Shown one piece after another: positions 11,467 to 33,776 of a DNA stretch of 33,776 bases. A program made the translations under genes and the position numbers. Source of the stretch: an uncultured Candidatus Saccharibacteria bacterium (GTDB taxonomy: Bacteria; Patescibacteriota; Minisyncoccia; Phycocordibacterales; UBA9973); the NCBI GenBank assembly GCA_964573395.1, contig CAZNJI010000002.1, positions 64,931-98,706 of the forward strand, written 5' to 3'. Below the pieces are notes generated by a model. It ran no database searches and was not told where the DNA came from. It saw only the letters and a list, made by a program, of their open reading frames with translations. Every line of letters begins with the position of its first letter. The first letter of the stretch is position 1.

Positions 11467-11517
11467 GGTTTTTAACTATTTGAGCTAAAGACTACACTTT
11501 CATCCTGCTCGTTCCTG

Positions 11518-11588
11518 TGCGGGTAAGGAGAATCGAACTCCTGTCTCGTCCTTGGCAAGGACGCATTCTACCACTAAACCATACCCGC
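11518..11588 (-). tRNA. tRNA-Gly (anticodon GCC), CCA not encoded
   Basis: Folded by hand as a cloverleaf: GCGGGTA/TACCCGC acceptor, anticodon arm CGTCC-TTGCCAA-GGACG, T-arm AGGAG-TTCGATT-CTCCT. 71 nt; lies 51 nt upstream of the cca start on the same strand. Confidence 0.9.
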
Positions 11589-11668
11589 TCTTAAATTGGT
11601 AACGCTCGGAATTATAGCCATAATTTTTCGTGTTTGCAACGAAAATAGCTTTTTATTCTTTATTTTTA

Positions 11669-11677
11669 TGCTATATT
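11669..11677 (+). promoter_or_regulatory. Extended -10 element (TGcTATATT) upstream of tRNA-Arg
   Basis: TGcTATATT lies 15 nt before the mature 5' end of the tRNA. No clear -35. Confidence 0.4.
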
Positions 11678-11691
11678 TTCTGTGTGCTCAT

Positions 11692-11763
11692 GCACCTATG
11701 GTGAAATGGATATCACAGCGGTCTTCGGAACCGTTATTCTGGGTTCGAATCCTGGTAGGTGCA
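11692..11763 (+). tRNA. tRNA-Arg (anticodon UCG), CCA not encoded
   Basis: Acceptor GCACCTA/TAGGTGC, D-arm GTGA-AATGGATA-TCAC, anticodon arm GCGGT-CTTCGGA-ACCGT, T-arm CTGGG-TTCGAAT-CCTGG (two G-U pairs). 72 nt. Confidence 0.88.
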
Positions 11764-11902
11764 CAAAACGAGTGTAGTGAGATTTGTGCACCTACAGCAA
11801 GCAACCTGCTTTGCTTGCGTCAGGATTCGAAAGGAGTTTCGTTATCCTGAGCTTAGCGAAGGATCGAAACTCACCCGCGACCGTAGGGCGAGAATCCTGG
11901 TA
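11755..11902 (+). other. Highly structured tRNA-Arg trailer ending in a partial copy of the tRNA 3' end
   Basis: Three hairpins. (1) 13-bp perfect stem gtaggtgcacaaa (11755-11767) with tttgtgcacctac (11783-11795). (2) 7-bp stem gcaagca/tgcttgc (11797-11818). (3) 12-bp interrupted stem tcaggat-t-cgaaa-GGAG-tttcg-tt-atcctga (11820-11850). Then gaatcctggta (11892-11902) repeats tRNA positions 11747-11757. Confidence 0.6.
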
Positions 11903-12109
11903 AATAATAAAGGCCCAAATCCTGTCTTTTCATAAGTCTTTTTATTTAAGTTTGTCGCTTAGACAATTTTGACTAATATTGTTCTATAATTCTTATTAAT
12001 AAAGGCTTTTATTGAAAACTGTGGAAAAAGATGTGTGCAATGTGGTTAACAGACAGTCTTTTACAATGTCTTTACTAAAAAACCTTTATAAAATATGATA
12101 ATAAAAATC

Positions 12110-12127
12110 TAGTTTCACGTGAAACTA
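12110..12127. promoter_or_regulatory. Perfect 18-bp palindrome (candidate operator) upstream of yraN
   Basis: TAGTTTCAC|GTGAAACTA ends 10 nt before the yraN ATG and follows the AT-rich -10-like boxes tataaaat and tgataat. Confidence 0.45.
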
Positions 12128-12137
12128 ATTTATAAAA

Positions 12138-12500
12138 ATGAAAATTTTTACTTCAAAAACGCAAAAAATCGGTGAAATAGGAGAAGATATCGCCGTAGCG
12201 TTTCTCATGAAACAGGGGTTCTCCATAGTTGAGCGCAATATCGCCAATAAGTTTGGTGAAATCGATATCGTTGCAAAAAAGCAAGGCAAATATTACTTTA
12301 TTGAGGTAAAAACCGATAAGGGAGGCTTTATTCGAGCGGCTGAAAACCTTCACCATAGAAAAATAGAGAAATTCTACCGTTCTGTTGAATACTACCGTTT
12401 AATGCATAGACAGGTAGGGGAAAACTATGCAATTTCAGTACTACTTGTTTCTCTACAGGATGGGAAAGATCCAACGATAGAGTTTTTAGAACATTTATAG
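12138..12500 (+). CDS. yraN: YraN-family (UPF0102) endonuclease-like protein
   Basis: GEIGEDIAVAFLMKQGFSIVERNIANKFGEIDIVAKKQGKYYFIEVKT matches the YraN core (G..GE..A..YL...G..I...N......GEIDI.........F.EVK). Confidence 0.88.
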   Translation: MKIFTSKTQKIGEIGEDIAVAFLMKQGFSIVERNIANKFGEIDIVAKKQGKYYFIEVKTDKGGFIRAAENLHHRKIEKFYRSVEYYRLMHRQVGENYAISVLLVSLQDGKDPTIEFLEHL

Positions 12501-12614
12501 GGTTTTACATTGTATTTTAAGGCTCTTACTGCTAGACTGCTCCGTACTAGAAAGTAATATCGGGATGCGGCCCCGCCTATGACGGGGTAAATAACGGCTT
12601 AACTGCCTGTGTGG

Positions 12615-12772
12615 GATTGAAAATTACATAAGGGCGTTTAAAAACGTTGTTTTTATCGTCGGGGTGTGGTGTAACGGCTAACATGCCTGTTTTGGGAACA
12701 GGTGACTCAGGGTTCGAATCCCTGCACCCCGACCATGAGAGTAACTAAAACGCCCTTATGTAATTTTCAATC
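12615..12772. repeat. Perfect 25-bp inverted repeat pair bracketing tRNA-Pro
   Basis: Left arm gattgaaaattacataagggcgttt (12615-12639). Right arm aaacgcccttatgtaattttcaatc (12748-12772) is its exact reverse complement. The tRNA lies 20 nt inside the left arm and 12 nt inside the right arm. Confidence 0.9.
12660..12735 (+). tRNA. tRNA-Pro (anticodon UGG) with genomically encoded CCA
   Basis: Acceptor CGGGGTG/CACCCCG (C1-G72, typical of bacterial tRNA-Pro), anticodon arm CCTGT-TTTGGGA-ACAGG, T-arm CAGGG-TTCGAAT-CCCTG, discriminator A, then CCA (12733-12735). Confidence 0.9.
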
Positions 12773-12869: not shown

Positions 12870-15800
12870 ATGCATTTTAATTCTATATTGTGTAATAGGT
12901 ACAGGAAGAGTGTTCGGACAATATCAGGATTGATTATTGGTCTCATGTTATGCGCCGGTATTACATCGTTCTTTTCACCGAACACCGCTCATGCTGCAGC
13001 AATTTCTGATGACCTTATCAGCCACTGGACCCTTGATGAAGAATCTGGAACTAGAGTAGATTCGCACGGGGATAATGATCTCACGCCAAGTGGGACCGGT
13101 CCGTATGGCGAAGGGAAAATGAGCAATGGGTTTGCTCCAACCGGCAGCGGGACAGAGGGGAGAATCGAGGTTGCCGACAATGCGTCCTTAAGTATGACGG
13201 ATGCCGATGACTTCACCATTTCAGCCTGGGTTAATTTTGATACCTTGAGCGGCACAAGAGGTATTATAGGAAAAAGTAACACTGAATATCTTTTGTATTC
13301 AAGCGGCAGTATTTTGCGATTTGCTGTATATGGCGGCAGTTCAGGAACTGCTTCTACGGTAAGCAGTGCGAATGTGCCAGCGGGTAATTGGCATTTTGTT
13401 GTTGCCTGGTACGATGCGGATGCGCATACGGTAAACATACAAGTTAATAACGGTACGCCAGTTTCTGCCGCAGCAACAGCCGGTCGACCAGTTGATGGAG
13501 CAAATGCGTTCGTAATTGGTGCCATAACAACCACGGGCTATTCCGACGGCATTATTGATTCCGTGAGTATATGGCAGCGTTTATTAACCAGTGATGAACG
13601 AAGCGCACTATATAATTCAGGAGATGGTCTTGAGTACCCGTTCGTAATCATACCGGATTCTCCTACGAATTTGGAAGCAACAGGAGGTAATACTGTTGTG
13701 AACCTTACTTGGACAGCGCCAGAATCGGACGGAGGTTCTGCTGTTACCGATTACGTAATTGAGTACAAACTCAGTTCGGAACCAACTACCTGGTCTACTT
13801 TTTCAGATGGCGCTTCTTCAGAAACTGAAACAACAGTCACCGGCCTTACGAATGGACTGAGCTACGATTTTCGGGTGAGCGCTGTTAATGCGGCAGGAAC
13901 AAGTTCGCCCTCAGCTACCGATTCAGCAGTTCCTCCCGTCTCCGAACCGGAAGCACCAGTCGCTAATTCAGTTGCTATTTCGGGGAATGCAAACGTAAGC
14001 GAGATGCTCACTGGCAGTTATACCTATAGTGATGCGAATGGTGATGATGAAGGCGCATCAACATACCGATGGATGCGCTCAGATACCGCCGGTGGAACAT
14101 ATACCGCTATTTCAGGTGCAACCAGTACTACATACACGCTCACTGAAGATGATCTTGGGAAATACATTAAGTTCGAAGTAACCCCTGTAACGGATGTGAG
14201 CCCTACAACAGGAGGGGCGGCATTGAGTAGCGCCACAAGTCAGGTAAAAAACGAAAGAATTTTGTACCACATTGTTTCTACTGGGCAGAGCCTCTCACTT
14301 GGTTCACAGGGTTCTCCTGCACTTACGACGGAACAGCCGTACGAGAATGTGCAACTGAGCGGCACTTCGCTTGTTCCGTTGGTAGAAAGTAGCGTAGAGA
14401 CGATGAGTAGTGCGCTTGCTAATACCCTTACGAACCTTTCGCCCCTAGAAGACACCATGTCTGCGGTAACCGTTGGAGGTTTAGGCGGTTCGGCATATAG
14501 CGTTATCAAAAAGGGGACGGCAACCTACAACGGTAATTTAACCAAGGCAACAAATGTTAAGAATGCAGCAGCTGAATTAGGAATTCCTGAAAAGATTGCT
14601 GGTGTAACGGTAATTCACGGTGAAACAGATATGTTAAATGATGTTTCGGCGGAAACATACGAGTCGTATCTTGTTGAATGGCAGAGTGACTACAATACCG
14701 ATTTGAAAGCGATTACCGGGCAGGAAGAAGACATACCACTATTCACCGATCAAACCAGTTCGCAGTCTGGTTACAGTAAAATAACTGCCGGCGTGCCGAT
14801 TGGACAGTTGGCTGCATCTGAAAATCATCCCGGAGACATTATTCTCATCGGGCCTAAATATTTTTTGACCTATGATGATAATGTTCATTTGGTGAACACC
14901 AGCTACCGATGGCTTGGAGAGTACTACGGTAAGGTATTTAAAAAAGTATTAATTGATGGGGAATCCTGGCGCCCACTCTCGCCAGATCAAGCAACGCGGG
15001 TTGGTAATGAGGTTTACGTTGATTTTCACGTTCCAGAAGGAGAGCTTGTATTTGATACGACTCTGGTAATAGAACGCACTAATTATGGTTTTGAATATTA
15101 TGACGATGCGTCGTCGGCAACCATTAGTTCCGTAGAAATTCATGATGAAGATACCGTTAAGGTAACACTCTCTACTACTCCTACGGGAGGTAACCAGAGA
15201 ATACGGTATGCATACACTACCAATACGTTCACATGGCCCGGAGCGCAAAAAGTTAATAGTGCCGGAGGGAATCTCCGCGATACCGACTCGACTGAATCGC
15301 TCTATGGCAACACGCTCTATAACTGGGCAGTGCATTTCGATAAGCCGATAACTTCAGATTCTACCGCACCTGTTATTTCTTCGGTTGCCGCTAACTCTTC
15401 TACCACTTCTGCGGCAATAACCTGGACTACTGGTGAAAGCGCATCAAGCATCGTCGAATATGGATTAACGAGTGATTACGGTTCTTCTACTTCTGAAACC
15501 GATACATCTCCTCGCGTTACAAGCCATACGGTCAATGTGTCCGGTTTAGTTGCCTGCACCACGTATCACTTTCGCGTGAAGTCAGAAGACGATAATGATA
15601 ACCTCGCAACTGGTTCTGATAATAGCTTTACTACCGCTGGCTGTACCGGATCGGCACAGGTAGAGGAGGATGTGGCAGAAGAAATCGATTCTAATACAGG
15701 TGGCTCGGTAGAGCTTGATGAAGGAGGAATGACGCTTGCAGTTCCGGCAGATGCTACGGATGCAGATGCGACATATCAAATTAAGCTTCTTGGCGGAGAA

Positions 15801-16478
15801 GCTGTTATTGACGCACTTGGAAGCCCGAGCGGCTACCATGCCTCTTTTGGCAGAATCTACGATATTAAGGCTTTTAGTAATTCAACAACAACTATTGATA
15901 GCTTTGATCAGCCTATTGAAATTATCGTATCTTATTCCGATGAAGATATTGAGGGTTTAAATGAATCATCTCTTACGCTCTATCGCTATCATGATGGTGC
16001 GTGGCAAGCACTCGATGATTGCGTAGTGGATGCTAATGCAAACAGTATTACTTGCACCACCGACCATTTCTCCGTGTTCGGATTATTCGGAGTGGTGGAT
16101 AGTTCTGGATCTTCGAGATCAATAGTGAGCGGGGGCGTCGTGTACTGTACCGCTGAAAGAACGACTTTCTGCCGCCCTCGAGTACAACAACCTGCTCCTA
16201 TTGATGTACAGCTTGGCTTGCCAGTACGAAATTTGAAACTTGGCATGGTTGGGGAAGATGTCCGTGCGCTCCAGCGAATTCTTAATGCAAGCGGCTTCCA
16301 GGTTTCAGCCACCGGTCCGGGTTCTGTTGGTAGTGAAACAAACTTTTTCGGCTCTCTGACCCGTGCCGCGGTTGCTCGGTACCAATTAATGCGCGGCATT
16401 TCTCCGTCTGTGGGGTATTTTGGCCCGATTACGCGTGCGCACATGAAATCAGCGGGACTACCAGGGTTGTGGTGGTAA
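12870..16478 (+). CDS. Large mosaic secreted/cell-wall protein: LamG lectin-like, FN3, Ig-like, SASA/sialate-O-acetylesterase-like, FN3-like, C-terminal peptidoglycan-binding domain
   Basis: 1202 aa.
- Signal peptide: GLIIGLMLCAGITSFFSPNTAHA.
- LamG_3-like: LISHWTLDEESG ... FTISAWVNFDT ... NWHFVVAWYDA ... DSVSIWQRLLTSDE.
- FN3: PDSPTNLEATGG ... LTWTAPESDGGSAVTDYVIEY ... YDFRVSAVNAAGTS.
- Ig-like: LTGSYTYSDANGDDEGASTYRWMR ... GKYIKFEVTPV.
- Esterase-like: STGQSLSLG ... VIHGETDM, compare GQSNM / QGE(S/T)D of the SASA family.
- Second FN3-like: ITWTTGESASSIVEYG ... CTTYHFRVKS.
- PG_binding_1-like tail: GEDVRALQRILNASGF ... FGSLTRAAVARYQ. Confidence 0.85.
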   Translation: MHFNSILCNRYRKSVRTISGLIIGLMLCAGITSFFSPNTAHAAAISDDLISHWTLDEESGTRVDSHGDNDLTPSGTGPYGEGKMSNGFAPTGSGTEGRIEVADNASLSMTDADDFTISAWVNFDTLSGTRGIIGKSNTEYLLYSSGSILRFAVYGGSSGTASTVSSANVPAGNWHFVVAWYDADAHTVNIQVNNGTPVSAAATAGRPVDGANAFVIGAITTTGYSDGIIDSVSIWQRLLTSDERSALYNSGDGLEYPFVIIPDSPTNLEATGGNTVVNLTWTAPESDGGSAVTDYVIEYKLSSEPTTWSTFSDGASSETETTVTGLTNGLSYDFRVSAVNAAGTSSPSATDSAVPPVSEPEAPVANSVAISGNANVSEMLTGSYTYSDANGDDEGASTYRWMRSDTAGGTYTAISGATSTTYTLTEDDLGKYIKFEVTPVTDVSPTTGGAALSSATSQVKNERILYHIVSTGQSLSLGSQGSPALTTEQPYENVQLSGTSLVPLVESSVETMSSALANTLTNLSPLEDTMSAVTVGGLGGSAYSVIKKGTATYNGNLTKATNVKNAAAELGIPEKIAGVTVIHGETDMLNDVSAETYESYLVEWQSDYNTDLKAITGQEEDIPLFTDQTSSQSGYSKITAGVPIGQLAASENHPGDIILIGPKYFLTYDDNVHLVNTSYRWLGEYYGKVFKKVLIDGESWRPLSPDQATRVGNEVYVDFHVPEGELVFDTTLVIERTNYGFEYYDDASSATISSVEIHDEDTVKVTLSTTPTGGNQRIRYAYTTNTFTWPGAQKVNSAGGNLRDTDSTESLYGNTLYNWAVHFDKPITSDSTAPVISSVAANSSTTSAAITWTTGESASSIVEYGLTSDYGSSTSETDTSPRVTSHTVNVSGLVACTTYHFRVKSEDDNDNLATGSDNSFTTAGCTGSAQVEEDVAEEIDSNTGGSVELDEGGMTLAVPADATDADATYQIKLLGGEAVIDALGSPSGYHASFGRIYDIKAFSNSTTTIDSFDQPIEIIVSYSDEDIEGLNESSLTLYRYHDGAWQALDDCVVDANANSITCTTDHFSVFGLFGVVDSSGSSRSIVSGGVVYCTAERTTFCRPRVQQPAPIDVQLGLPVRNLKLGMVGEDVRALQRILNASGFQVSATGPGSVGSETNFFGSLTRAAVARYQLMRGISPSVGYFGPITRAHMKSAGLPGLWW

Positions 16479-16483
16479 TGCAG

Positions 16484-16554
16484 TGCGGATAGGGAGAATC
16501 GGACTCCCGCCCGATGCTTGGGAAGCATCTGTTCTGCCACTAAACCATATCCGC
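16484..16554 (-). tRNA. tRNA-Gly (anticodon CCC), CCA not encoded, unusual T-loop
   Basis: Acceptor GCGGATA/TATCCGC, anticodon arm GATGC-TTCCCAA-GCATC, T-arm GGGAG-TCCGATT-CTCCC, so the T-loop reads U54-C55-C56. 71 nt; starts 6 nt after the stop of the convergent large gene. Confidence 0.85.
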
Positions 16555-16700
16555 AAATAGTGCTAGCATCGTAGCAGACTTTCTGCTTTATTTAAATAAG
16601 GGTTTCTGCTACCATAGGGGTTGCTCCGAAAATAAGCTCGATACTCTCTCGGATTTGCGCTTTGAAATAAGGAGAATGTATACCCCTACTATGAAAAAAT

Positions 16701-16771
16701 GCGGGATTAGTTTATCGGTAAAACATCAGTTTTCCAAACTGAGGTGAAGGGTTCGATTCCCTTATCCCGCA
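16701..16771 (+). tRNA. tRNA-Gly (anticodon UCC), CCA not encoded
   Basis: Acceptor GCGGGAT/ATCCCGC, anticodon arm TCAGT-TTTCCAA-ACTGA, T-arm AAGGG-TTCGATT-CCCTT. 71 nt. Confidence 0.9.
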
Positions 16772-16951
16772 CAAAAACAAATGAGCTCAACACACCGTGT
16801 TGGGCGATTTTGTTTTGTAGCAGGGGAAGGGAAGAGAAAGACGGAGACGGTATACAAGACGAGCAACGCGAGTGCTTGTCGCCGAGTCGGGGCTGCGAGT
16901 CCTGGGTATAGTGAAGGAATTTGTGGCCGATTCCATTATCCCGCACAAAAA
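16754..16951 (+). repeat. 24-nt direct repeat of the tRNA-Gly(UCC) 3' end (att-like scar)
   Basis: cgattcccttatcccgcacaaaaa (16754-16777; T-loop 3' half, acceptor 3' strand and trailer) recurs as cgattccattatcccgcacaaaaa (16928-16951). Match is 23 of 24 nt; the copies start 174 nt apart. Confidence 0.8.
16788..16817 (+). terminator. Terminator after tRNA-Gly(UCC)
   Basis: caacac-acc-gtgttg followed by ggcgattttgttttg. The upstream A-run caaaaacaaa can extend the stem. Confidence 0.6.
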
Positions 16952-19270: not shown

Positions 19271-21973
19271 CTATCGGTAGCGATTCATGATTTCGGCTTC
19301 AACTTCTGCTCGCGGCCGGCCGTAGGTAAGGTATGAAAGCTCCTTCATTTTTTCGGCGATTTCTATATTGCCTTTCGGCGGAGGAGGGATCTTCAGGTTG
19401 AATGGTTTTTCCGGTACTCCGCCAACCAGAATTTTTGCGTAGGCGTTGAAATTTTGCAGCTTCAAAACGTCGGCCGGAGTAAAGACGGGGGAGAGTTGTC
19501 GCTCGAATACGACGGCATTTTCAGGAGAAACACGGTAGATAATCATACTGCCAACGTTTCCGAATACTGCATTTTTGATGTTTTCCTGAAGCTGTTCAAT
19601 GAATTGGTGGGCAACCGTAAGGCCGAGGCGATACTTGCGTGCTTCTGAGAGAATCGTGGCAATTGAATCGGTAGTAATGTTTTGGAACTCGTCAATGTAG
19701 AGGTAAAAATCGTTCACCGCTTCTTTGCCGAGCACGTCAGATCGAGAGAGTGCCGCCATGGTGAGCTTGCCAACGAGCACGAGCCCGATAAGGTGCGAGT
19801 TAATATCTCCGAGCCGCCCCTTCGACAAGTTCACGAGAAGGATTTTTTTGTTATCCATGATCTCTCGGAAATTAAGCACCGAGTGCTGCTGCGCAATAAC
19901 CGGCCGCATGATGTCATTTGAGATGAAGACGTCGAATTTGTTCGTAATGTACGGGACAAAGTTCGCCAGCGATTGTTCGCCGGTCGTTTTTTCGGCATTT
20001 TCCCAGAATTGCTTGATGATCGGATTTTTGCAGCGCGAAAGTTTGAGCGCTCGGAATTCCTTGTCGGCAAGCACACGGCCGATTTCAAGGAGCGTTGAGC
20101 CTGACGCCGGATCTTCCATCACCAGGAGCGCTGAGTTTCTAAAGTATTGTTCGAAAGCCGGGCCGCCGGCTACCTTCATGTCGAAGAGCTTGTTGAAAAT
20201 GGCGAGCAGTTCGTTCACCACGAACGTCTTTTGCTCCGGGAATCGTTCATCATATTCGAGCATGTTAAGCCCCATCGGCCGGTCGGTGTGAGACGGATCG
20301 AAGTAGATAACATCTTCCAGCCGATCTTGGGGGATGTTGGCAAGAATGTCGTTCAGATCGGTTCCGTGCGGATCGATAAAGCAGAATCCGTTTCCGTTTT
20401 TCGCATCTTGAATCGCCATGTTTTTAAGAATGGTGGTTTTACCGGTTCCGGTTTGGCCGATCACGTAGCAGTGGCGCATGCGATCTTCAGGAGCAAGGAA
20501 TACGTCGGTGGTGTGTCCGCGGTAAATATTGGTGCCAAGATACACTCCGGTATTTTGAATTGAAACGGGAGCCGGCGCCGTTGCCCCTGCAACTTCTTTC
20601 AATTCTGGTGCGGCAATGAGCCCGACAGGGAAGTGGAAGAGGGTTGCGAGTTCGTCAACTGAAAAAATCATCTCTTCAGATGGCGTACGAGTGCGGAATG
20701 AAAAGGTACGACAAAAATCAAATACATGAGAAGTGCGGACGTCATTCCAAGTAATCGCATTTGACCCGGGAAGCATGAATTGGTTGAAAGAACTTTTTAT
20801 GGTTCTAAGAATATTCTCGGCACGGTCGGCAGTGCTGCTGCTTGCAATGATTCGGATTGCTGCCGCAATGCTCTGGCTTTTACTTTTTTCAGTCGCCAAT
20901 TTGATTCCTTGTTCATCAAGCGGCTTGTCTTTGTTTTCTGCTTCTTTCTGATTTGAAAAAAGAGAAAGCAGGGTTTTGCCGGTTCCTACTAACACCGATT
21001 CAGTTGCTTCTTGGTACAGCTCTTTTACCGTTTTACCTGGTTCCGCATGTGCTCGCGAGAGGACATCAGAAAAAACTTTTTGGTGGTTTGCTGTATCTGC
21101 ACAAATGAGGAATTGAATTGCAGCGCCTTCATGGTCATCTGCAAGCTGGGAAAGCGATCCGATGAGGGCAACGAGCGGGTCATGCTCAAATGATGCATCA
21201 GTGTTCAATGGAAAAATTGCCGGCTCTTGCAAGCTACCTACCGACGCTTTAATGGCTCCGTTTGAAGTGAAAATGTTGTAGTCATTAACAGCAGCTTCGA
21301 TGGCAGCTCCCGGATAAAACGCATGTACCGTTTTTTCAAAAAGCTCAACCGAATCTCGGGGTACTGCTGCGTAGAGCGCAATGTCTCTTCCATGATTTTG
21401 TACGGCGAGCTCAAGCGTGTAGTACGCATCGCCGGAAAGCGAAAGCATGGTTACGTAAAACTGCTTCATTGCCTGAATGAATGTTTTGAAGTTTTGCTGT
21501 TCGGCCTCCGAAGAACTTGCGGGAAGCGTTACGGTAAAAAGGGAATGACTTAATTCTGAATGGAGGGCTGATTTTTCTTTTAACCCCGGAATTGCTCCGA
21601 TGGTATGAAGGTATTGCACGAGAAAGCGATGAAAGTCATCAATCAAGTGCGAATCTTTTGTTTGCGCTGCGGCATCGAGCGCATTTTTAATACCCTTTTC
21701 AAGCGCGAGCGCGAAGAGCGCCTCGATGTTTTCATCATGCTCTTCTGGTTTTAAATGAAGCGTGAAACGCTCTACTTCATGATCCGGCAGAATCTGCGTT
21801 TCGTGGAGGAATTCTTTTGCTTCAGCTTGCGCGTATTGTTCTAAGACTACCTTCCCGACAGCTTCGGTTGAGCGCGGCGTTTCATGGCCAGATTGGGATT
21901 GTTCCTGTATTTGTGTTCCGAGCCAAGGTGCTTCTTCGGTAGGAGAGGTGAACTTTTCTGATCTGTGCAGCAT
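19271..21973 (-). CDS. VirD4/TraD/TraG-like (type IV coupling-protein-like) P-loop ATPase with a large N-terminal domain of unknown function
   Basis: Walker A CYVIGQTGTGKTT followed by FIDPHG. Walker B/sensor region FYLYIDEFQNITTDSIATILSEARKYRLGLTVAHQFIEQL is typical of the TraD/TrwB DNA-binding ATPase family. About 480 aa precede the ATPase and contain no hydrophobic helices. The ATG at 21973 is preferred over the GTG at 22018. Confidence 0.85.
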   Translation of the reverse strand: MLHRSEKFTSPTEEAPWLGTQIQEQSQSGHETPRSTEAVGKVVLEQYAQAEAKEFLHETQILPDHEVERFTLHLKPEEHDENIEALFALALEKGIKNALDAAAQTKDSHLIDDFHRFLVQYLHTIGAIPGLKEKSALHSELSHSLFTVTLPASSSEAEQQNFKTFIQAMKQFYVTMLSLSGDAYYTLELAVQNHGRDIALYAAVPRDSVELFEKTVHAFYPGAAIEAAVNDYNIFTSNGAIKASVGSLQEPAIFPLNTDASFEHDPLVALIGSLSQLADDHEGAAIQFLICADTANHQKVFSDVLSRAHAEPGKTVKELYQEATESVLVGTGKTLLSLFSNQKEAENKDKPLDEQGIKLATEKSKSQSIAAAIRIIASSSTADRAENILRTIKSSFNQFMLPGSNAITWNDVRTSHVFDFCRTFSFRTRTPSEEMIFSVDELATLFHFPVGLIAAPELKEVAGATAPAPVSIQNTGVYLGTNIYRGHTTDVFLAPEDRMRHCYVIGQTGTGKTTILKNMAIQDAKNGNGFCFIDPHGTDLNDILANIPQDRLEDVIYFDPSHTDRPMGLNMLEYDERFPEQKTFVVNELLAIFNKLFDMKVAGGPAFEQYFRNSALLVMEDPASGSTLLEIGRVLADKEFRALKLSRCKNPIIKQFWENAEKTTGEQSLANFVPYITNKFDVFISNDIMRPVIAQQHSVLNFREIMDNKKILLVNLSKGRLGDINSHLIGLVLVGKLTMAALSRSDVLGKEAVNDFYLYIDEFQNITTDSIATILSEARKYRLGLTVAHQFIEQLQENIKNAVFGNVGSMIIYRVSPENAVVFERQLSPVFTPADVLKLQNFNAYAKILVGGVPEKPFNLKIPPPPKGNIEIAEKMKELSYLTYGRPRAEVEAEIMNRYR

Positions 21974-22043
21974 ACGGCAATTATACGCGACAACCGTAGT
22001 AAATAAAATAATACTCACCGGTTTTTTGGTATACTTTTATCGT

Positions 22044-25897: not shown

Positions 25898-26194
25898 TTA
25901 TAACCCTTCAACTACTCCTTCAAAATAGAGCTCGTTGAGTTCTTGTTCGGTTTGGTCGAGTTCTGAAGCATTGTCTGATTGTGTTGCACCGACATTTTGC
26001 ATGTCATACTCATTGTTTATTACTTCAGCAGGATTTTTTTTGAGATACCAATACCCAAGCCCTGCTGCGACAAGGATAATAAGCAGGGCTATTAATAGTG
26101 ATTTTGCAGTATGCGGCTTTTTGTTCTGCTGCTCACCTTGCATGCTGCTTGGCATTTGCTCTAGCTTTGTTTCATTCAATCCGTTCGGTTCCAT
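25898..26194 (-). CDS. Small single-pass membrane protein (MEPN-type), paralog of 31115-31435
   Basis: 98 aa. MEPNGL..., a basic patch (KKPH), a transmembrane helix LLIALLIILVAAGLGYWYL, and an acidic tail (DQTEQELNEL). Begins 3 nt after the upstream secreted-protein gene. Confidence 0.65.
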   Translation of the reverse strand: MEPNGLNETKLEQMPSSMQGEQQNKKPHTAKSLLIALLIILVAAGLGYWYLKKNPAEVINNEYDMQNVGATQSDNASELDQTEQELNELYFEGVVEGL

Positions 26195-29526: not shown

Positions 29527-31080
29527 ATGCCACATAGCCTCCTGCAATCAAGGTTTATTTGGGTAACGCTTACATTTTTGTGCTTTTTGGTATCTTTTTT
29601 TTCGCATGGAATACGGAGTGCTTCGGCTGGAACGGGAGACAATATAACGGGGCATATCTGGAGTTCGAACGTGGGATGGGTGAGTTTGAATAATTGCGAT
29701 GAACTGGGCAGCTGCGGCCCCGTTTCATATGGCATTTCCTTTCTGCCGGTGGCGCCTGGCACTGGAAGCGGATATGCGTGGAGCCCGAACGTAGGATGGA
29801 TTACCTTCAATGACACCGGTTGTCCGGCAAATGTCCCCGGATGCGTTGGCGGTACCCGGATCGATTGGGAACATACAGACGGAGTTGGTTTTCATCAAAT
29901 GAAAGGATGGCCGCGAGCTTGCAGCGTCTATGTTTCAGGCTGCAGCGGAGCGCTCAAGGATGCATCGATTCTCGGGGGATGGGACGGATACCTGGCGCTT
30001 TCAGACGAGGTGGCAACCGACGGAATTGATTGGGGCGCGGTCGATGTTCGCTCTGATAATACGATTCAAGACTGGATGTGGGGGTCTGATGTATTCGGTT
30101 GGATGAAATTCTACGCCAAGATTAATAGCGGGTTCTTCGTCACGCTCACGGCGAGCAGCCCGACCATTAGCCCGGGGCAATCGTCGAACCTTACCTGGAA
30201 TTCCAACGGCGTATCGTGCACCGGAACGAACTTTTCAACCGGATCGGCAAAGCCGCGGACGGGAACGGTAACGGTAAGCCCGACCGTTACCACCGATTAC
30301 ACGGTTACCTGTAGCGATTCAATCGGCAATACGAAAACAGCAACGGCTCGAGTAACCGTCGTCTCTTCTTCTGCTGTAAATAATTTTACGTCATCGAGCA
30401 GCTGTCTGCCGCCAGGAAATCGAGTTCCGGCGTTCAGCTGGAGTACGACCGACCTAAGCCAGTGCACTATTAAGATGCAATCTTCAGGAAACACTGCTTC
30501 ACAATCCGTTCTGCCGTCAGGGAACAACGTAACATTGAACAGTTCCATGGGAATTCCTGCATCATCGGCAAGCGCGAATTATACGCTCGAATGCGCGGCC
30601 AACGGTTCAGGCGCCGTTCTGCCGAATCTCGTTTCAAGCGTCCCTCCGGTATCGGTTTCAATTTGCGCAACCAGCTATGGCATCAGTGTTACCCCGATGG
30701 ATCCTCGCTTGGTCGATGCGGCCAATGATCCCGTTACCGGGCTGCCGCGGAAAAAACAGCAATTCAGAATTAGCGTAAGCCCGAGCGGCGGCTTTACCGG
30801 AACGGTAACCCTCGGCAGAACGCTGCCAAGTTTTGCGGTAGGAGCAAATCCGGTATTTCCAAGCGGCACCACGGCAGTGTTTGATGCCTCCACGCTCAGC
30901 TCTAGCGCCGGCTCGTACGGAACGGCAATTCTTACCGTTTTCCTGCCGGCGGCAAGCGTTACGCCGAATACGACCTGGGCGAATATTACCGTAACCGGCA
31001 CATCCGGATCATTCTCTGCTTCCGCGCCGGCAACTGTGTCGTCAGCCGGAAAGCGCGAGCTCATTTACGAAGAAATTTAA
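29527..31080 (+). CDS. Secreted protein: three WSxNxGW-type repeats followed by Ser/Thr-rich Ig-like domains
   Basis: 517 aa. Signal peptide FIWVTLTFLCFLVSFFSHGIRSASA. Repeats GHIWSSNVGWVSLN, GYAWSPNVGWITFN and DWMWGSDVFGWMKF. Ig-like units, e.g. LTASSPTISPGQSSNLTWNSNGVSCTG ... TTDYTVTCSDSIGNTKTATARVTV. Confidence 0.75.
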   Translation: MPHSLLQSRFIWVTLTFLCFLVSFFSHGIRSASAGTGDNITGHIWSSNVGWVSLNNCDELGSCGPVSYGISFLPVAPGTGSGYAWSPNVGWITFNDTGCPANVPGCVGGTRIDWEHTDGVGFHQMKGWPRACSVYVSGCSGALKDASILGGWDGYLALSDEVATDGIDWGAVDVRSDNTIQDWMWGSDVFGWMKFYAKINSGFFVTLTASSPTISPGQSSNLTWNSNGVSCTGTNFSTGSAKPRTGTVTVSPTVTTDYTVTCSDSIGNTKTATARVTVVSSSAVNNFTSSSSCLPPGNRVPAFSWSTTDLSQCTIKMQSSGNTASQSVLPSGNNVTLNSSMGIPASSASANYTLECAANGSGAVLPNLVSSVPPVSVSICATSYGISVTPMDPRLVDAANDPVTGLPRKKQQFRISVSPSGGFTGTVTLGRTLPSFAVGANPVFPSGTTAVFDASTLSSSAGSYGTAILTVFLPAASVTPNTTWANITVTGTSGSFSASAPATVSSAGKRELIYEEI

Positions 31081-31114
31081 TTTCTCTTTTTAAAAGCGGT
31101 ATACTCAAAAAGTA

Positions 31115-31435
31115 ATGGAACCGAATGTACAAGCTCAAACATCCGGAGTGCGCTTGCCCGAAGCAAAGCCAAAGCATCACCATATGCCGCTCGTGCTAGG
31201 GGCGGTGCTCATCCTCATACTTCTACTTGCGGGTTGGTATTGGTGGAACCAAACACAAAAAGGCGTTACGCCGCTCGAGCAGTTAAGCGAACTGAAATAT
31301 TCATCACGTCCGGTTTCTGAATCAGTAGAAGATCGGCTGATTGAACTTGAGGCAATCCAAGAAAGTTCCGCGCCGGTTACCGCAACTAGCGATGAACAGC
31401 TCAACATGCTTGAGTCGCTTGGCCGCTCAGAGTAA
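31115..31435 (+). CDS. Small single-pass membrane protein (MEPN-type), paralog of 25898-26194
   Basis: 106 aa. MEPNVQ..., a basic patch (KPKHHH), a transmembrane helix LVLGAVLILILLLAGWYWW, and an acidic tail (SDEQLNMLESL). Confidence 0.65.
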   Translation: MEPNVQAQTSGVRLPEAKPKHHHMPLVLGAVLILILLLAGWYWWNQTQKGVTPLEQLSELKYSSRPVSESVEDRLIELEAIQESSAPVTATSDEQLNMLESLGRSE

Positions 31436-31450
31436 AATTTTAACTTACTT

Positions 31451-31888
31451 ATGAAATTCTCTTCTCCGCTATCTTCAAACACACAGGCACGGCTTCTGCT
31501 CTTTCTGCTCGGATTGTTTGTTTTTTTTGGAGCGGGAGTTTCTGCTTTTACGCCGCCCGTCGGCCATCCGGCTGATTGGAACATTGCTCCTCCGATCAAC
31601 GTGACTGAAGCGAATCAGGTAAAGGGCGGCGGTCTTTCGGTGAACGCATTCACTGCCCGCGGCAATGCTCAGTTTGCCCAAAAGGCAACGTTTAAGGGAA
31701 TAGTGCGGGGATCGAACGCAGCAAGCTCAACCATCTACTTCGGAGGCGCATCGAACGAAGTGGGAGTGAGCATTTTGGGCGACGTTGAAACGACGGGCCG
31801 ATTTCAAATAGATGATCTGCGGCACGCCGAGAGCCAGCCAAAGCGGCTCTGCGCGGATGCGAATGGAAAACTTATTTTTTGCCCATAA
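31451..31888 (+). CDS. Secreted protein, core-only member of a three-paralog family
   Basis: 145 aa. Signal LLLFLLGLFVFFGAGVSA, then FTPPVGHP ... PPINVTEANQVKGGGLSVNAFTARGNAQF ... IYFGG ... RLCADANGKLIFCP at the C-terminus. Confidence 0.7.
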   Translation: MKFSSPLSSNTQARLLLFLLGLFVFFGAGVSAFTPPVGHPADWNIAPPINVTEANQVKGGGLSVNAFTARGNAQFAQKATFKGIVRGSNAASSTIYFGGASNEVGVSILGDVETTGRFQIDDLRHAESQPKRLCADANGKLIFCP

Positions 31889-31890
31889 TC

Positions 31891-32784
31891 ATGAAGCATA
31901 AAATCATTCCACAACTACTCATTCTTATTTCCGGCATCGTGCTTGCTGTCGGCGCTAGTTATGTGCATGCAGCGCTTTTCACTGAGCCAACAGGTGCTCC
32001 GGTAATGAGTAATAAGGATGTGCCGATTCACGTCGGTGCCGATCAGGTGAAAAACGGCGGCCTCTCTGTCGGAACTTTTTTAGCAAACCAGAACGCGCAA
32101 TTTGACCAGCAGGTATTTCTGGGGGGGACGACCGCTCGGATGGTTCGAGGAGGCGCTCCTGCGACTGCCAATTCAACTGTCAATATCGGTGGGTTCAATG
32201 TCGATAATTCGGTCGACCGGGTAAAAACGATGGTTGACGGAAGCGTATTTGCCAATTCTCTTGAAGGAACGGATCTAAGCAATAACAGTTCGCGGAAGGT
32301 TTGCGCAAATGCCGCCGGAAAACTGGTGCTCTGTGAAGTTGTCTATGCTGCCGGAAGTGTTCAGGCGTGGTCACGATATAGTGCAAGTTCCGGCGATCCA
32401 ATTCCATGTCCGGTTCCGGGTCCCTTCTGCAGCAACACCGGACAGTCTGGGGTAGGCTTGCCACCGGGCAGTACATCAAATACAGGGTATGCATTTACCA
32501 TTCAAGCATGTTTAGATAAACACTATACTCAAGATAAGCAGGTAACGATTCAATGGACGGCAGGTGGGCAGCAGTACCAAAGCAACGTAACGGTGTATGC
32601 AAATCCAAACAGTAACGAAGGATATACGAATACCTGGTTTGCACTTAATTATGGAAACCCGAATGTGTGTTCAAAAATTTACGGGGTGGATGGGCCAACT
32701 ACGGGCGGCGTACCAACTATTAGCAACGTTTGCATCCGCCCGGCCGACAGCACGATTCCGGTGGCGCCAAGTCAGCAATGTTAA
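31891..32784 (+). CDS. Secreted protein, paralog 2: shared core plus a Cys-rich C-terminal domain
   Basis: The ATG at 31891 (MKHKII...) lies 2 nt after the previous stop. Signal ends VHA, then ALFTEPTGAP ... PIHVGADQVKNGGLSVGTFLANQNAQF ... NIGG ... KVCANAAGKLVLC, then about 150 aa with 6 further Cys. Confidence 0.72.
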   Translation: MKHKIIPQLLILISGIVLAVGASYVHAALFTEPTGAPVMSNKDVPIHVGADQVKNGGLSVGTFLANQNAQFDQQVFLGGTTARMVRGGAPATANSTVNIGGFNVDNSVDRVKTMVDGSVFANSLEGTDLSNNSSRKVCANAAGKLVLCEVVYAAGSVQAWSRYSASSGDPIPCPVPGPFCSNTGQSGVGLPPGSTSNTGYAFTIQACLDKHYTQDKQVTIQWTAGGQQYQSNVTVYANPNSNEGYTNTWFALNYGNPNVCSKIYGVDGPTTGGVPTISNVCIRPADSTIPVAPSQQC

Positions 32785-32786
32785 CC

Positions 32787-33719
32787 ATGAATACCACTTT
32801 TAAAACATACGCATCCATATTCCTTATTACAGTACCACTTCTTTTTCTGGCGGAAACGCTTCAAGCGCAATTCGTGTATCCGCCGGTATATCCGGCATTT
32901 CCGAATAACAATACCGAAGCCTTAATTCACGTCGGCGCCGATCAGGTGAAAGGAAATACCACAAACAGTTCAGGCCTTGCGGTCGGCGCGTTCGTAGCCA
33001 AACAGAATGCTTCGCTTGATGGGCAGAGTTTTTTTACCGGCCACTTAAACGGATTGTTCTTAAGTACGGTTCCAGGCGGCGTTGGTTTTTTTCCGAATAC
33101 CACTCATTTTTCAATGTTGCGATTCGGTGGAACCATTTCTGGTGATCCGCAGCCCAAAAAAGCCACCATCGATATAAATGGAAAATTATCATCTCTCTAC
33201 GGCCTTAGTTCAGGCATGCTTGCTTCAACAGAGAGCGAAACGGAACTCTGCGCCGAACAGGATGGAACGATTATTCTTTGCTCCGATGCGCTCTGGGAGC
33301 CGATATACGTAGTGGTGAATGAAACTTTTACTCCTGCTGAGAATCATTATCAGTGCATTGATTCAAACGGCGATCCAATCGGCTATACGGTTCAAGACGG
33401 ACAAGAACACGTGACGGTTACGCTTGAGTTTTATCGAAGCCAGACTGATTATCAAAACAGTGGTAACTTCTTCGTGTGTGGATTTAGCCAGTGCAAGTTC
33501 GACGTAACCGGAAGAAATTTGGTCATCAAATATGCGTTCAACGGTACGCAGCAACAGACTCCGGCGCTCGCCGGCATGAGTCATGTACTCTTCAGTAATT
33601 TGCCGACCGATCGAATCGTTGGGGATGTATACAATTGCTCGGTGGAAGCGACTCCCGTAAACACTTACACTATCCAGAACGGAACCGCGCTACCTGTTCC
33701 ATATCAGCTGAACCCGTAA
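32787..33719 (+). CDS. Secreted protein, paralog 3: shared core plus a different C-terminal domain
   Basis: The ATG at 32787 (MNTTFK...) lies 2 nt after the previous stop. Signal ends LQA, then QFVYPP ... LIHVGADQVKGN..SGLAVGAFVAKQNASL ... RFGG ... ELCAEQDGTIILC, then about 150 aa unrelated to the paralog 2 extension. Confidence 0.72.
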   Translation: MNTTFKTYASIFLITVPLLFLAETLQAQFVYPPVYPAFPNNNTEALIHVGADQVKGNTTNSSGLAVGAFVAKQNASLDGQSFFTGHLNGLFLSTVPGGVGFFPNTTHFSMLRFGGTISGDPQPKKATIDINGKLSSLYGLSSGMLASTESETELCAEQDGTIILCSDALWEPIYVVVNETFTPAENHYQCIDSNGDPIGYTVQDGQEHVTVTLEFYRSQTDYQNSGNFFVCGFSQCKFDVTGRNLVIKYAFNGTQQQTPALAGMSHVLFSNLPTDRIVGDVYNCSVEATPVNTYTIQNGTALPVPYQLNP

Positions 33720-33776
33720 AGGTGCGATACTCACACTCTTTTTCCTTGTGCTCTCTCGGCAAGGCGCTATATACTA

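Follow-up and report, generated by a model that had tools for sequence, protein, structure and literature searches.

What is encoded by the five consecutive, wholly unannotated genes at one end of a 33,776 nt stretch of DNA from an uncultured Candidatus Saccharibacteria bacterium (GenBank assembly GCA_964573395.1, contig CAZNJI010000002.1, positions 64,931–98,706 of the forward strand; referred to below as the window)? The genes (O1–O5, window positions 29527–33719) form a cassette for a WSxNxGW/immunoglobulin (Ig)-like protein, a small bitopic membrane protein and three paralogs that share one core. A substantial part of bacterial diversity belongs to the Patescibacteria, which as far as known live attached to other microbes; their contact molecules have been described only for a few cultured Saccharibacteria. 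The cassette is conserved and exported, and its combination of a constant assembly part with variable outer parts is the architecture expected of a recognition device. We tentatively propose, as a plausible rather than a probable reading, that it encodes a Sec-exported, disulfide-stabilised surface module in which the paralogs would co-assemble via their core and show variable binding heads, and which is genetically tied to type IV pili. The cassette is a good but unproven candidate part of the cell-contact apparatus of Patescibacteria; the five genes and a family of ~360 clusters provide a concrete, testable set for partner recognition and holding.

All five open reading frames (ORFs) lie on the plus strand, with successive gaps of 34, 15, 2 and 2 nt. 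O1 (29527–31080) encodes an exported protein of 517 aa, O2 (31115–31435) a membrane protein of 106 aa with a predicted N-in orientation (hydropathy and positive-inside residues), and O3 (31451–31888), O4 (31891–32784) and O5 (32787–33719) encode the paralogs of 145 aa, 297 aa and 310 aa, the latter two counted from their ATG codons. The coordinates and gaps were re-derived and agree with those of a preliminary description of this DNA, which had also reported the block to be free of internal terminators; five terminator-like sites were counted in the region versus 6.3 ± 2.9 in shuffled sequences, which is not above chance, and promoter-like matches likewise did not exceed the shuffled expectation. 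Homologues of the cassette genes at 25–45% identity keep the same order in many genomes, and the genes are therefore considered to be real.

Paralogy of the three 3′ genes was established by pairwise comparison (O3/O4, E = 2e-16; O4/O5, E = 8e-12; O3/O5, E = 3e-6), in accord with the single shared module that had been noticed before, and each of the three was also matched by a profile built from relatives (E = 5e-43, 2e-39 and 6e-32 for O3, O4 and O5, respectively). The core comprises ~115 aa and closes in a C-x9-C loop (CADANGKLIFC, CANAAGKLVLC and CAEQDGTIILC). O3 consists of a signal peptide (residues 1–32), a Pro-rich arm and the core, and ends one residue past its C134-x9-C144 loop (core-only, g3 class). 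In O4 (g4 class) the signal peptide (residues 1–27) and core (28–149; 31972–32337) are followed by a C-terminal domain (150–297; 32338–32781), and the same holds for O5 (g5 class), with a signal peptide at residues ~1–27, a core at 28–166 (32868–33284) that contains an insertion after QVK, and a C-terminal domain at 167–310 (33285–33716). The C-termini indeed differ as previously described: O3 has no extension, that of O4 comprises 149 aa with six Cys, and that of O5 comprises 145 aa with four Cys and is unrelated to that of O4. The C-terminal domain of O4 is an orphan, with no relative among the family representatives or the PDB sequences, and that of O5 has a single relative (P0177) and no PDB match.

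An exhaustive HMMER search of 1.84 billion representatives identified 359 members of the core family at E ≤ 1e-3 and 184 at E ≤ 1e-10; cluster members carry only 'hypothetical protein' names. The family signature consists of a Sec signal, an arm of the form [WFY]-[TS]-x-P...P-P-x-x-N...P-[IL]-x-x-G...Q-[VI]-K-x-G-G-L, ~80 aa and a C-A-x-x-x-G-x-x-x-x-C hairpin, and the genes sit after O1/O2-type genes. Throughout the family the core is N-terminal (residues ~25–150), with 0–400 aa behind it. Of 149 representatives examined, 24 (16%) are core-only, and 119 have C-terminal domains that measure 60 aa or more and form 42 BLAST clusters; P0002 and the first paralog in loci L014, L015 and L019 are likewise core-only. 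The logic of a conserved module with swappable distal domains, previously read from the window, thus holds family-wide, the variation being one between lineages. Each paralog position has its own motifs (FEARGNA...CADxxGxFYLC in the first paralog, FLAxQNAQFxQQ in the second and the insertion after QVK in the third), and the paralogs at each position are orthologous across lineages, going back to ancient rather than recent duplications. Two proteins, P0057 (L022:966–2603) and P0058, are fusions of two full cores in tandem (residues ~30–151 and 176–290) with a large C-terminal domain, and the cassette of L022 consists of one separate core-only gene followed by this two-core fusion. A 1047-aa repeat protein (P0160) with 13 partial profile matches was dismissed, its score being inflated by repeats.

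O1 can be divided into three parts. The N-terminal domain (29629–30126, residues 35–200) contains three WSxNxGW β-hairpins, placed at residues 40–53, 79–93 and 183–198 in an AlphaFold2 (AF2) model, and three short C-x5/6-C loops; the spacer (30133–31041, residues 203–505) consists of three Ig-like β-sandwich domains as judged from the AF2 strand pattern; the C-terminal tail (31042–31077) ends in ...ELIYEEI and fits a conserved [YF]-x-E-[FISHT]-COOH pattern. The model has a predicted local distance difference test score (pLDDT) of 77, rising above 90 in the last Ig-like domain. Foldseek retrieved only generic tandem Ig/FN3 arrays from adhesins and receptors (probability 0.99–1.0), so that residues 203–505 of the model belong to the Ig-like fold, a fold class and not a functional family. 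Full-length homologues occur in Patescibacteria at 33–37% identity, and in an O1 alignment invariant W-S-x-N-x-G-W columns appear three times, along with WDGYIAL and ACSVYxxGC. The N-terminal domain is the sole part of O1 that is kept in all cassette variants, including those with a short or divergent O1; the spacer domains differ among lineages, and the tail is kept whatever spacer is present (KP[IV][YF]xEF, PxYIES, HYEEH). In L034 the spacer is formed by five copies (CPNIxGxQ...C; L034:7001–8047) of a module of ~25 aa, C-x-N-I-x-G-x-Q-x-x-x-P-x-G-...-G-x-C. The same module stands at the start of the C-terminal domain shared by third paralogs (L005, L007, P0093, P0117 and others), and domains have therefore been shuffled among the components of the cassette.

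O2 has one predicted transmembrane segment (residues ~24–45; 31184–31249), preceded by KPKHHH, and a predicted extracellular tail of ~60 aa with the conserved motif TPxExLQxL...SxPV...R...L...ML..L. A homologue occupies the same position in every cassette. A second small bitopic protein (98 aa) is encoded on the minus strand of the window at 25898–26194, between tig and ppa, and is matched weakly by the O2 profile (E = 3e-4); relatives carry an unannotated gene for 138–176 aa at this position.

Signal peptides and topology were assigned by a heuristic based on the n-region, hydropathy and the cleavage-site pattern. O1, O3, O4 and O5 each show a basic n-region, an apolar stretch of ~17–21 aa and a small-x-small site and are thus predicted to carry Sec signal peptides, the pattern in the family being MKK, ~17 apolar residues and then V/A-x-A. 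With O2 as the one single-pass membrane protein, the previously reported topology of the block is reproduced by this heuristic. The number of Cys residues in the mature protein is even in 144 of the 149 family members, as expected of disulfide-bonded extracytoplasmic proteins, and the cassette proteins are rich in Ser, Thr, Gly and Asn. Neither in the five window proteins nor in the 149 representatives was a class III pilin signal (the kind processed by PilD, with Gly at −1, Phe/Met at +1 and Glu at +5 around the end of a short basic leader; searched as a regular expression), an LPXTG motif, a lipobox ([LVI][ASTVI][GAS]C), a C-terminal transmembrane segment, or an isopeptide motif or sortase signal found; the lack of pilin, sortase and lipobox signals in the five proteins had already been stated and now extends to the family.

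Searches of O1–O5 against Pfam, NCBIfam and PHROGs gave nothing above threshold, the best PHROG match being to a family of unknown function (E = 0.003). Profile searches of the PDB sequences were empty for the core, for full-length O1, for the C-terminal domain that third paralogs have in common and for the two window-specific C-terminal domains. The AF2 monomer model of O4, calculated from an alignment of 84 sequences, is poor (overall pLDDT 63); its core contains almost no intrachain strands, although the pLDDT is 71–85 over residues 70–150. A modelled core so poor in secondary structure would agree with an intertwined fibre without proving one. Foldseek with this model gave no significant match in the PDB (best E = 2) or in BFVD (best E = 0.06); fibrous viral proteins among the non-significant BFVD matches were not counted as evidence. 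Mean-field direct-coupling analysis of 175 core sequences yielded only gap and short-range artefacts and no contact information. The proteins had initially been described as belonging to no nameable family, and the profile and structure searches return no characterised family save the generic Ig-like domains of O1. The cassette is undescribed in the open-access literature searched; its protein families are new, and the logic of a constant module with a variable head linked to pili is of an already known kind.

Loci were gathered via contigs of O1 homologues and from genome and metagenome collections and were searched with hidden Markov models for O1, O2 and the core. The order of WSxNxGW protein, small bitopic protein and exactly three core genes was found at every locus with enough DNA. 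The cassette is divergent from nusA, with ppa and tig beyond, and at least 18 divergent lineages, whose NusA proteins are 71–82% identical, carry it beside nusA; the five-gene order, whose conservation in relatives had been left to be checked, is therefore syntenic. A highly divergent five-gene version (L029:5890–10006) lies between smc and rplJ, not beside nusA, and encodes a WS-hairpin protein whose repeats are rich in Cys, a bitopic protein of 100 aa and three ~250-aa paralogs in which the arm contains Cys. The L029 paralogs carry the motif VGIGTxxPxxxLxI, which is also present in a 582-aa fibre-like protein with a Peptidase_S74 (intramolecular chaperone) domain encoded ~2.5 kb downstream of the cassette in L004 (L004:15271–17019). 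A link between the core and this L004 protein was rejected (E = 9.5).

In five of the 18 lineages pilB lies on the same strand 58–79 nt downstream. In L034, L036/L037 and L038 a spacer of 58–74 nt is followed by genes for PilB (T2SSE and MshEN domains), PilC (T2SSF), three pilin-like proteins of ~150–185 aa and a protein of ~595 aa (operons at L034:10434–15047, L036:7019–13224 and L038:8299–14502), and in L017 and L031 PilB is encoded after 60 and 79 nt. Canonical G↓[FY]xLxE signals, such as G↓FFLIEV and G↓YSLIEL, are present in all three pilin-like genes of L034 and in two of three in L036 and L038; the ~595-aa protein has a pilin-like N-terminus without the Glu at +5. No pilM/N/O, pilD or pilT was found within the operons of L034, L036 and L038, and tpiA follows the operon in L036 and L038. 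The flanking genes, nusA and tpiA, do not differ between loci with and without the pilus genes, and the pilus-linked loci do not form one tight clade by NusA identity; the pilus block has therefore been gained or lost repeatedly at this site. The association is recurrent, not universal. The suggestion that the block might run past the edge of the window can accordingly be divided: the cassette itself ends at gene 5, and in the five lineages a type IV pilus operon extends the block beyond it. In some lineages without the pilus block, not all, one to three small lipoprotein genes (lipobox e.g. ...SC[GSA]K) follow the cassette (L004:12867–13241, L005:13077–14937, L007:13075–13617, L012, L013, L014 and L041). 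The O5 stop codon is followed by 57 nt (33720–33776) before the window ends, and an independent Logan contig of the same sequence (L001) stops at the same base; this recurrent assembly break sits exactly where relatives carry the 58–79 nt spacer before pilB.

Under the proposed reading, the five genes would constitute one Sec-exported envelope module specific to Patescibacteria. O2 would be the likely membrane tether since it is the sole membrane-embedded component, and O1 may act as an exported stalk or adaptor built from a disulfide-stapled three-hairpin domain, a lineage-variable spacer and the [YF]xE[FI] tail. O3–O5, each with a cleavable signal peptide, a Pro-rich arm and the ~115-aa core closed by its C-x9-C hairpin, would co-assemble through the core into a 1:1:1 hetero-oligomer, probably a fibre-like trimer; the number of paralogs fixed at three, the 2 nt gaps, the two-core fusion and the failure of the core to fold alone in AF2 point to such an assembly. 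The lineage-specific C-terminal domains (here none, 149 aa and 145 aa) would point outward as binding heads. The match between three O1 hairpins and three paralog arms is suggestive only; proteins that have only the N-terminal arm of the core adjoin O1-like proteins in L029, L030 and L033 and were counted in favour of arms pairing with the WS domain. Type IV pili, the organelle by which members of this phylum are known to attach, mediate host binding in Saccharibacteria, in which additional close-range adhesins have been postulated (PMC12206443), and this together with the recurrent adjacency to pilus operons suggests that the module serves cell-to-cell or cell-to-surface contact. Host attachment by the cassette, like its oligomeric state, binding partners, surface exposure and adhesion function, is something that we infer. 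In its most specific form, the proposal is that of a new type of surface organelle: a heterotrimeric Sec-exported fibre of three chains and three heads, with its Pro-rich arms docked on the O1 hairpins and O2 as tether, by which Patescibacteria of the Paceibacteria type would, together with type IV pili, recognise their hosts. This full version is unlikely to be correct in every part; should the three chains indeed assemble into a heterotrimer, the fold of the fibre would be new as well.

Several points weigh against the surface-contact reading. Thirteen of the 18 lineages have no adjacent pilus genes; tpiA/pgk follows instead, with or without small lipoprotein genes before it, and in one case dnaA. 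The window DNA stops 57 nt after O5, and the count of five in 18 comes from relatives. The housekeeping neighbourhood and the apparently vertical inheritance would also suit a constitutive function in the envelope that has nothing to do with host recognition, and the C-termini may have diverged through relaxed constraint and not through adaptive swapping. The low-confidence O4 model may lack secondary structure because the prediction failed and not because the oligomer is intertwined. Signal peptides and topology were assigned heuristically, and no resemblance to a known fibre, pilin or adhesin was found in sequence or fold. Every mechanistic step rests on inference and not on an experiment or a determined structure.

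Several described systems can be compared with the cassette. The tip modules of type IV pili (minor pilins plus a PilY1-type adhesin) resemble it in that several small paralogous subunits are encoded together with one large Sec-exported protein, and 'modular pilins' with grafted C-terminal domains share the conserved N-terminal assembly module with variable C-terminal functional domains; the cassette also adjoins pilB–pilC–pilin genes in the five lineages. Unlike type IV pilins, however, none of the 149 family members has the class III (G↓FxxxE) signal that is present in the neighbouring true pilins, and no sequence or fold similarity to pilins was found. Unlike PilY1, O1 has neither a β-propeller nor a vWA domain (Pfam, NCBIfam, AF2 and Foldseek). 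Phage tail fibres and receptor-binding proteins, as well as the chimeric trimeric fibres of predatory bacteria (Bdellovibrio, e.g. PDB entry 8ond), likewise combine a conserved N-terminal attachment part with diverse distal domains, and two further points of likeness are that AF2 does not fold the O4 chain as a monomer and that the VGIGTxxPxxxLxI motif of the divergent L029 paralogs recurs in the Peptidase_S74 fibre-like protein of L004. In contrast to phage fibres, the cassette has no PHROG, Pfam, PDB-profile or Foldseek match, and an exact-pattern scan for the core motif in 2.9 million viral contigs found none, which is a weak test given that it used one motif only; its proteins have Sec signal peptides, its locus is a chromosomal housekeeping one, and it encodes three distinct paralogs in place of one gene for a homotrimer.

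Heterotrimers of the C1q type consist of three clustered paralogous chains with a shared stalk and three different globular heads. The cassette is analogous in having three tandem paralogs, fixed in number, with a common N-terminal assembly region and a C-terminal head each; unlike C1q, it has no collagen repeats and no homology to that protein, and the heterotrimer is here putative.

The alternative that survives best treats O1 and O3–O5 as Sec-translocated cargo, pushed through the wall or S-layer by a pseudopilus in a monoderm analogue of type II secretion, in which case they would be matrix or surface proteins. The pilB–pilC–pilin genes directly downstream on the same strand in five of the 18 lineages and the predicted Sec signals and disulfides of all four proteins would fit this, and a Gram-positive precedent exists in Clostridium perfringens, where type IV pilus genes are required for BsaC to be secreted and for BsaA oligomers to be secreted efficiently (PMC11580942). 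The bsa operon is thus a case in which Sec-signal proteins are released through the wall of an outer-membrane-free bacterium via such genes (PMC11580942). The pilus genes are nevertheless missing from the locus in most lineages, and the pilus dependence is here putative. Moreover, neither the window proteins nor 84 family members gave a Pfam match to the TasA/camelysin family; unlike the bsa operon, the cassette has no TasA/BsaA-like or vWA domains and no gene for a SipW-type peptidase. The fixed trio of paralogs together with a dedicated membrane protein suggests an assembled complex and not free cargo, and this explanation is considered to be quite unlikely.

A Sec-dependent polymer, i.e. 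a thread or pilus without type IV machinery in which core-only proteins form the shaft, those with C-terminal domains the tip or decoration, and O1 and O2 the base or anchor, is decidedly improbable. The small size of the subunits (mature core ~115 aa), which end in a disulfide loop, would suit it, as would the frequency of core-only variants, the existence of tandem-core fusions and the N-terminal Pro-rich arm, which could be a donor segment. However, AF2 shows no Ig-like or jelly-roll subunit fold, which donor-strand pilins usually display even as monomers, all three paralogs have bulky C-terminal domains in most lineages, and the tight 1:1:1 operon coupling is unlike the expression of major versus minor subunits. 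In addition, no sortase signal or isopeptide motif was found. The sortase-assembled pili of Gram-positive bacteria (three pilin genes and a sortase) resemble the cassette in having three exported paralogous subunits in one operon, and Ig-like domains are present in the cassette; it differs from sortase pili in the lack of LPXTG, of a C-terminal membrane anchor and of a sortase gene.

With much the same low probability, O3–O5 could be three independent secreted effectors (enzymes, lectins or toxins) that have in common an N-terminal module for targeting or wall anchoring, O1 and O2 serving as partners for docking or in an immunity-like role, after the manner of polymorphic effectors. The great diversity of the C-terminal domains (42 clusters) is in keeping with this, and in two of 84 family members (P0060 and P0086) the core is followed by a Hint/bacterial-intein-like domain (C...HN) and this in turn by a small Cys-rich one, an order that recalls pre-toxin HINT proteins. 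These were the only Pfam matches among the 84, and in the window neither a Hint domain nor an immunity gene of a polymorphic toxin was found. No C-terminal domain matches an enzyme or toxin family, the core-only members (16%) would lack the effector altogether, the paralog classes are ancient and positionally fixed rather than a variable array, and no immunity-like small gene follows each paralog.

A role of the cassette as structural accessory to the pilus machine, in which it would be no adhesin but a Patescibacteria-specific stand-in for alignment or envelope-conduit parts such as PilN/O/P/Q, is very unlikely. This was considered in view of the adjacent pilus operons without pilM/N/O, the vertical conservation of the cassette among housekeeping genes, and O2, which is bitopic with a helical ectodomain like PilN, PilO and GspM and matches GspM weakly (15.4 bits versus a cut-off of 60). 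All profile matches of O2 are, however, far below threshold, and 19 homologues scanned gave similarly weak scores to unrelated bitopic proteins, including FliL, GltJ and anti-sigma factors; the identification of O2 as GspM, PilO or PilN was therefore rejected. The ectodomain of O2 measures only ~60 aa compared with ~100 aa for the ferredoxin-like ectodomain of those proteins, machine parts are normally conserved, in contrast to the highly variable C-terminal halves of O1 and the paralogs, and pilM/N/O may simply be located elsewhere in the genomes. General envelope structural proteins or an S-layer unrelated to pili or host contact, to which export, conservation, the housekeeping neighbourhood and the Ser/Thr/Gly/Asn-rich composition would fit, are extremely improbable given that the cassette proteins, unlike typical S-layer proteins, are disulfide-rich, that three paralogs with variable distal domains are not typical of S-layers and that Foldseek matched the Deinococcus HPI S-layer only as one of many generic Ig arrays.

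Further genes were noted in the relatives and in the window. A protein of ~570 aa with a Por_Secre_tail (type IX secretion sorting) domain is encoded between nusA and O1 in L034 (L034:5191–6915), and a Por_Secre_tail protein also lies beyond ppa on the opposite strand in L037, running off the end of the locus (L037:1–544); such a domain is odd in bacteria that are believed to have neither an outer membrane nor type IX secretion. The minus strand of the window (19271–22018) encodes a 915-aa VirD4/TraG-like coupling ATPase that stands alone among housekeeping genes, an arrangement also seen in L007 (DUF8128). A link between the cassette and this protein, ~7.5 kb upstream, was rejected because housekeeping genes intervene and because in this phylum the genes for such coupling proteins commonly lie far away from virB4 (PMC12102498). 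An Rfam scan of the window gave no family above threshold beyond five transfer RNA (tRNA) genes. These tRNA genes (Gly-GCC, Arg-TCG, Pro-TGG, Gly-CCC and Gly-TCC; 11517–12735 and 16483–16772) flank a gene on the plus strand (12870–16478) for an exported protein of 1202 aa with LamG-like, FN3, SASA-type esterase, purple-acid-phosphatase-N and peptidoglycan-binding domains, which is a candidate surface or wall-acting protein.

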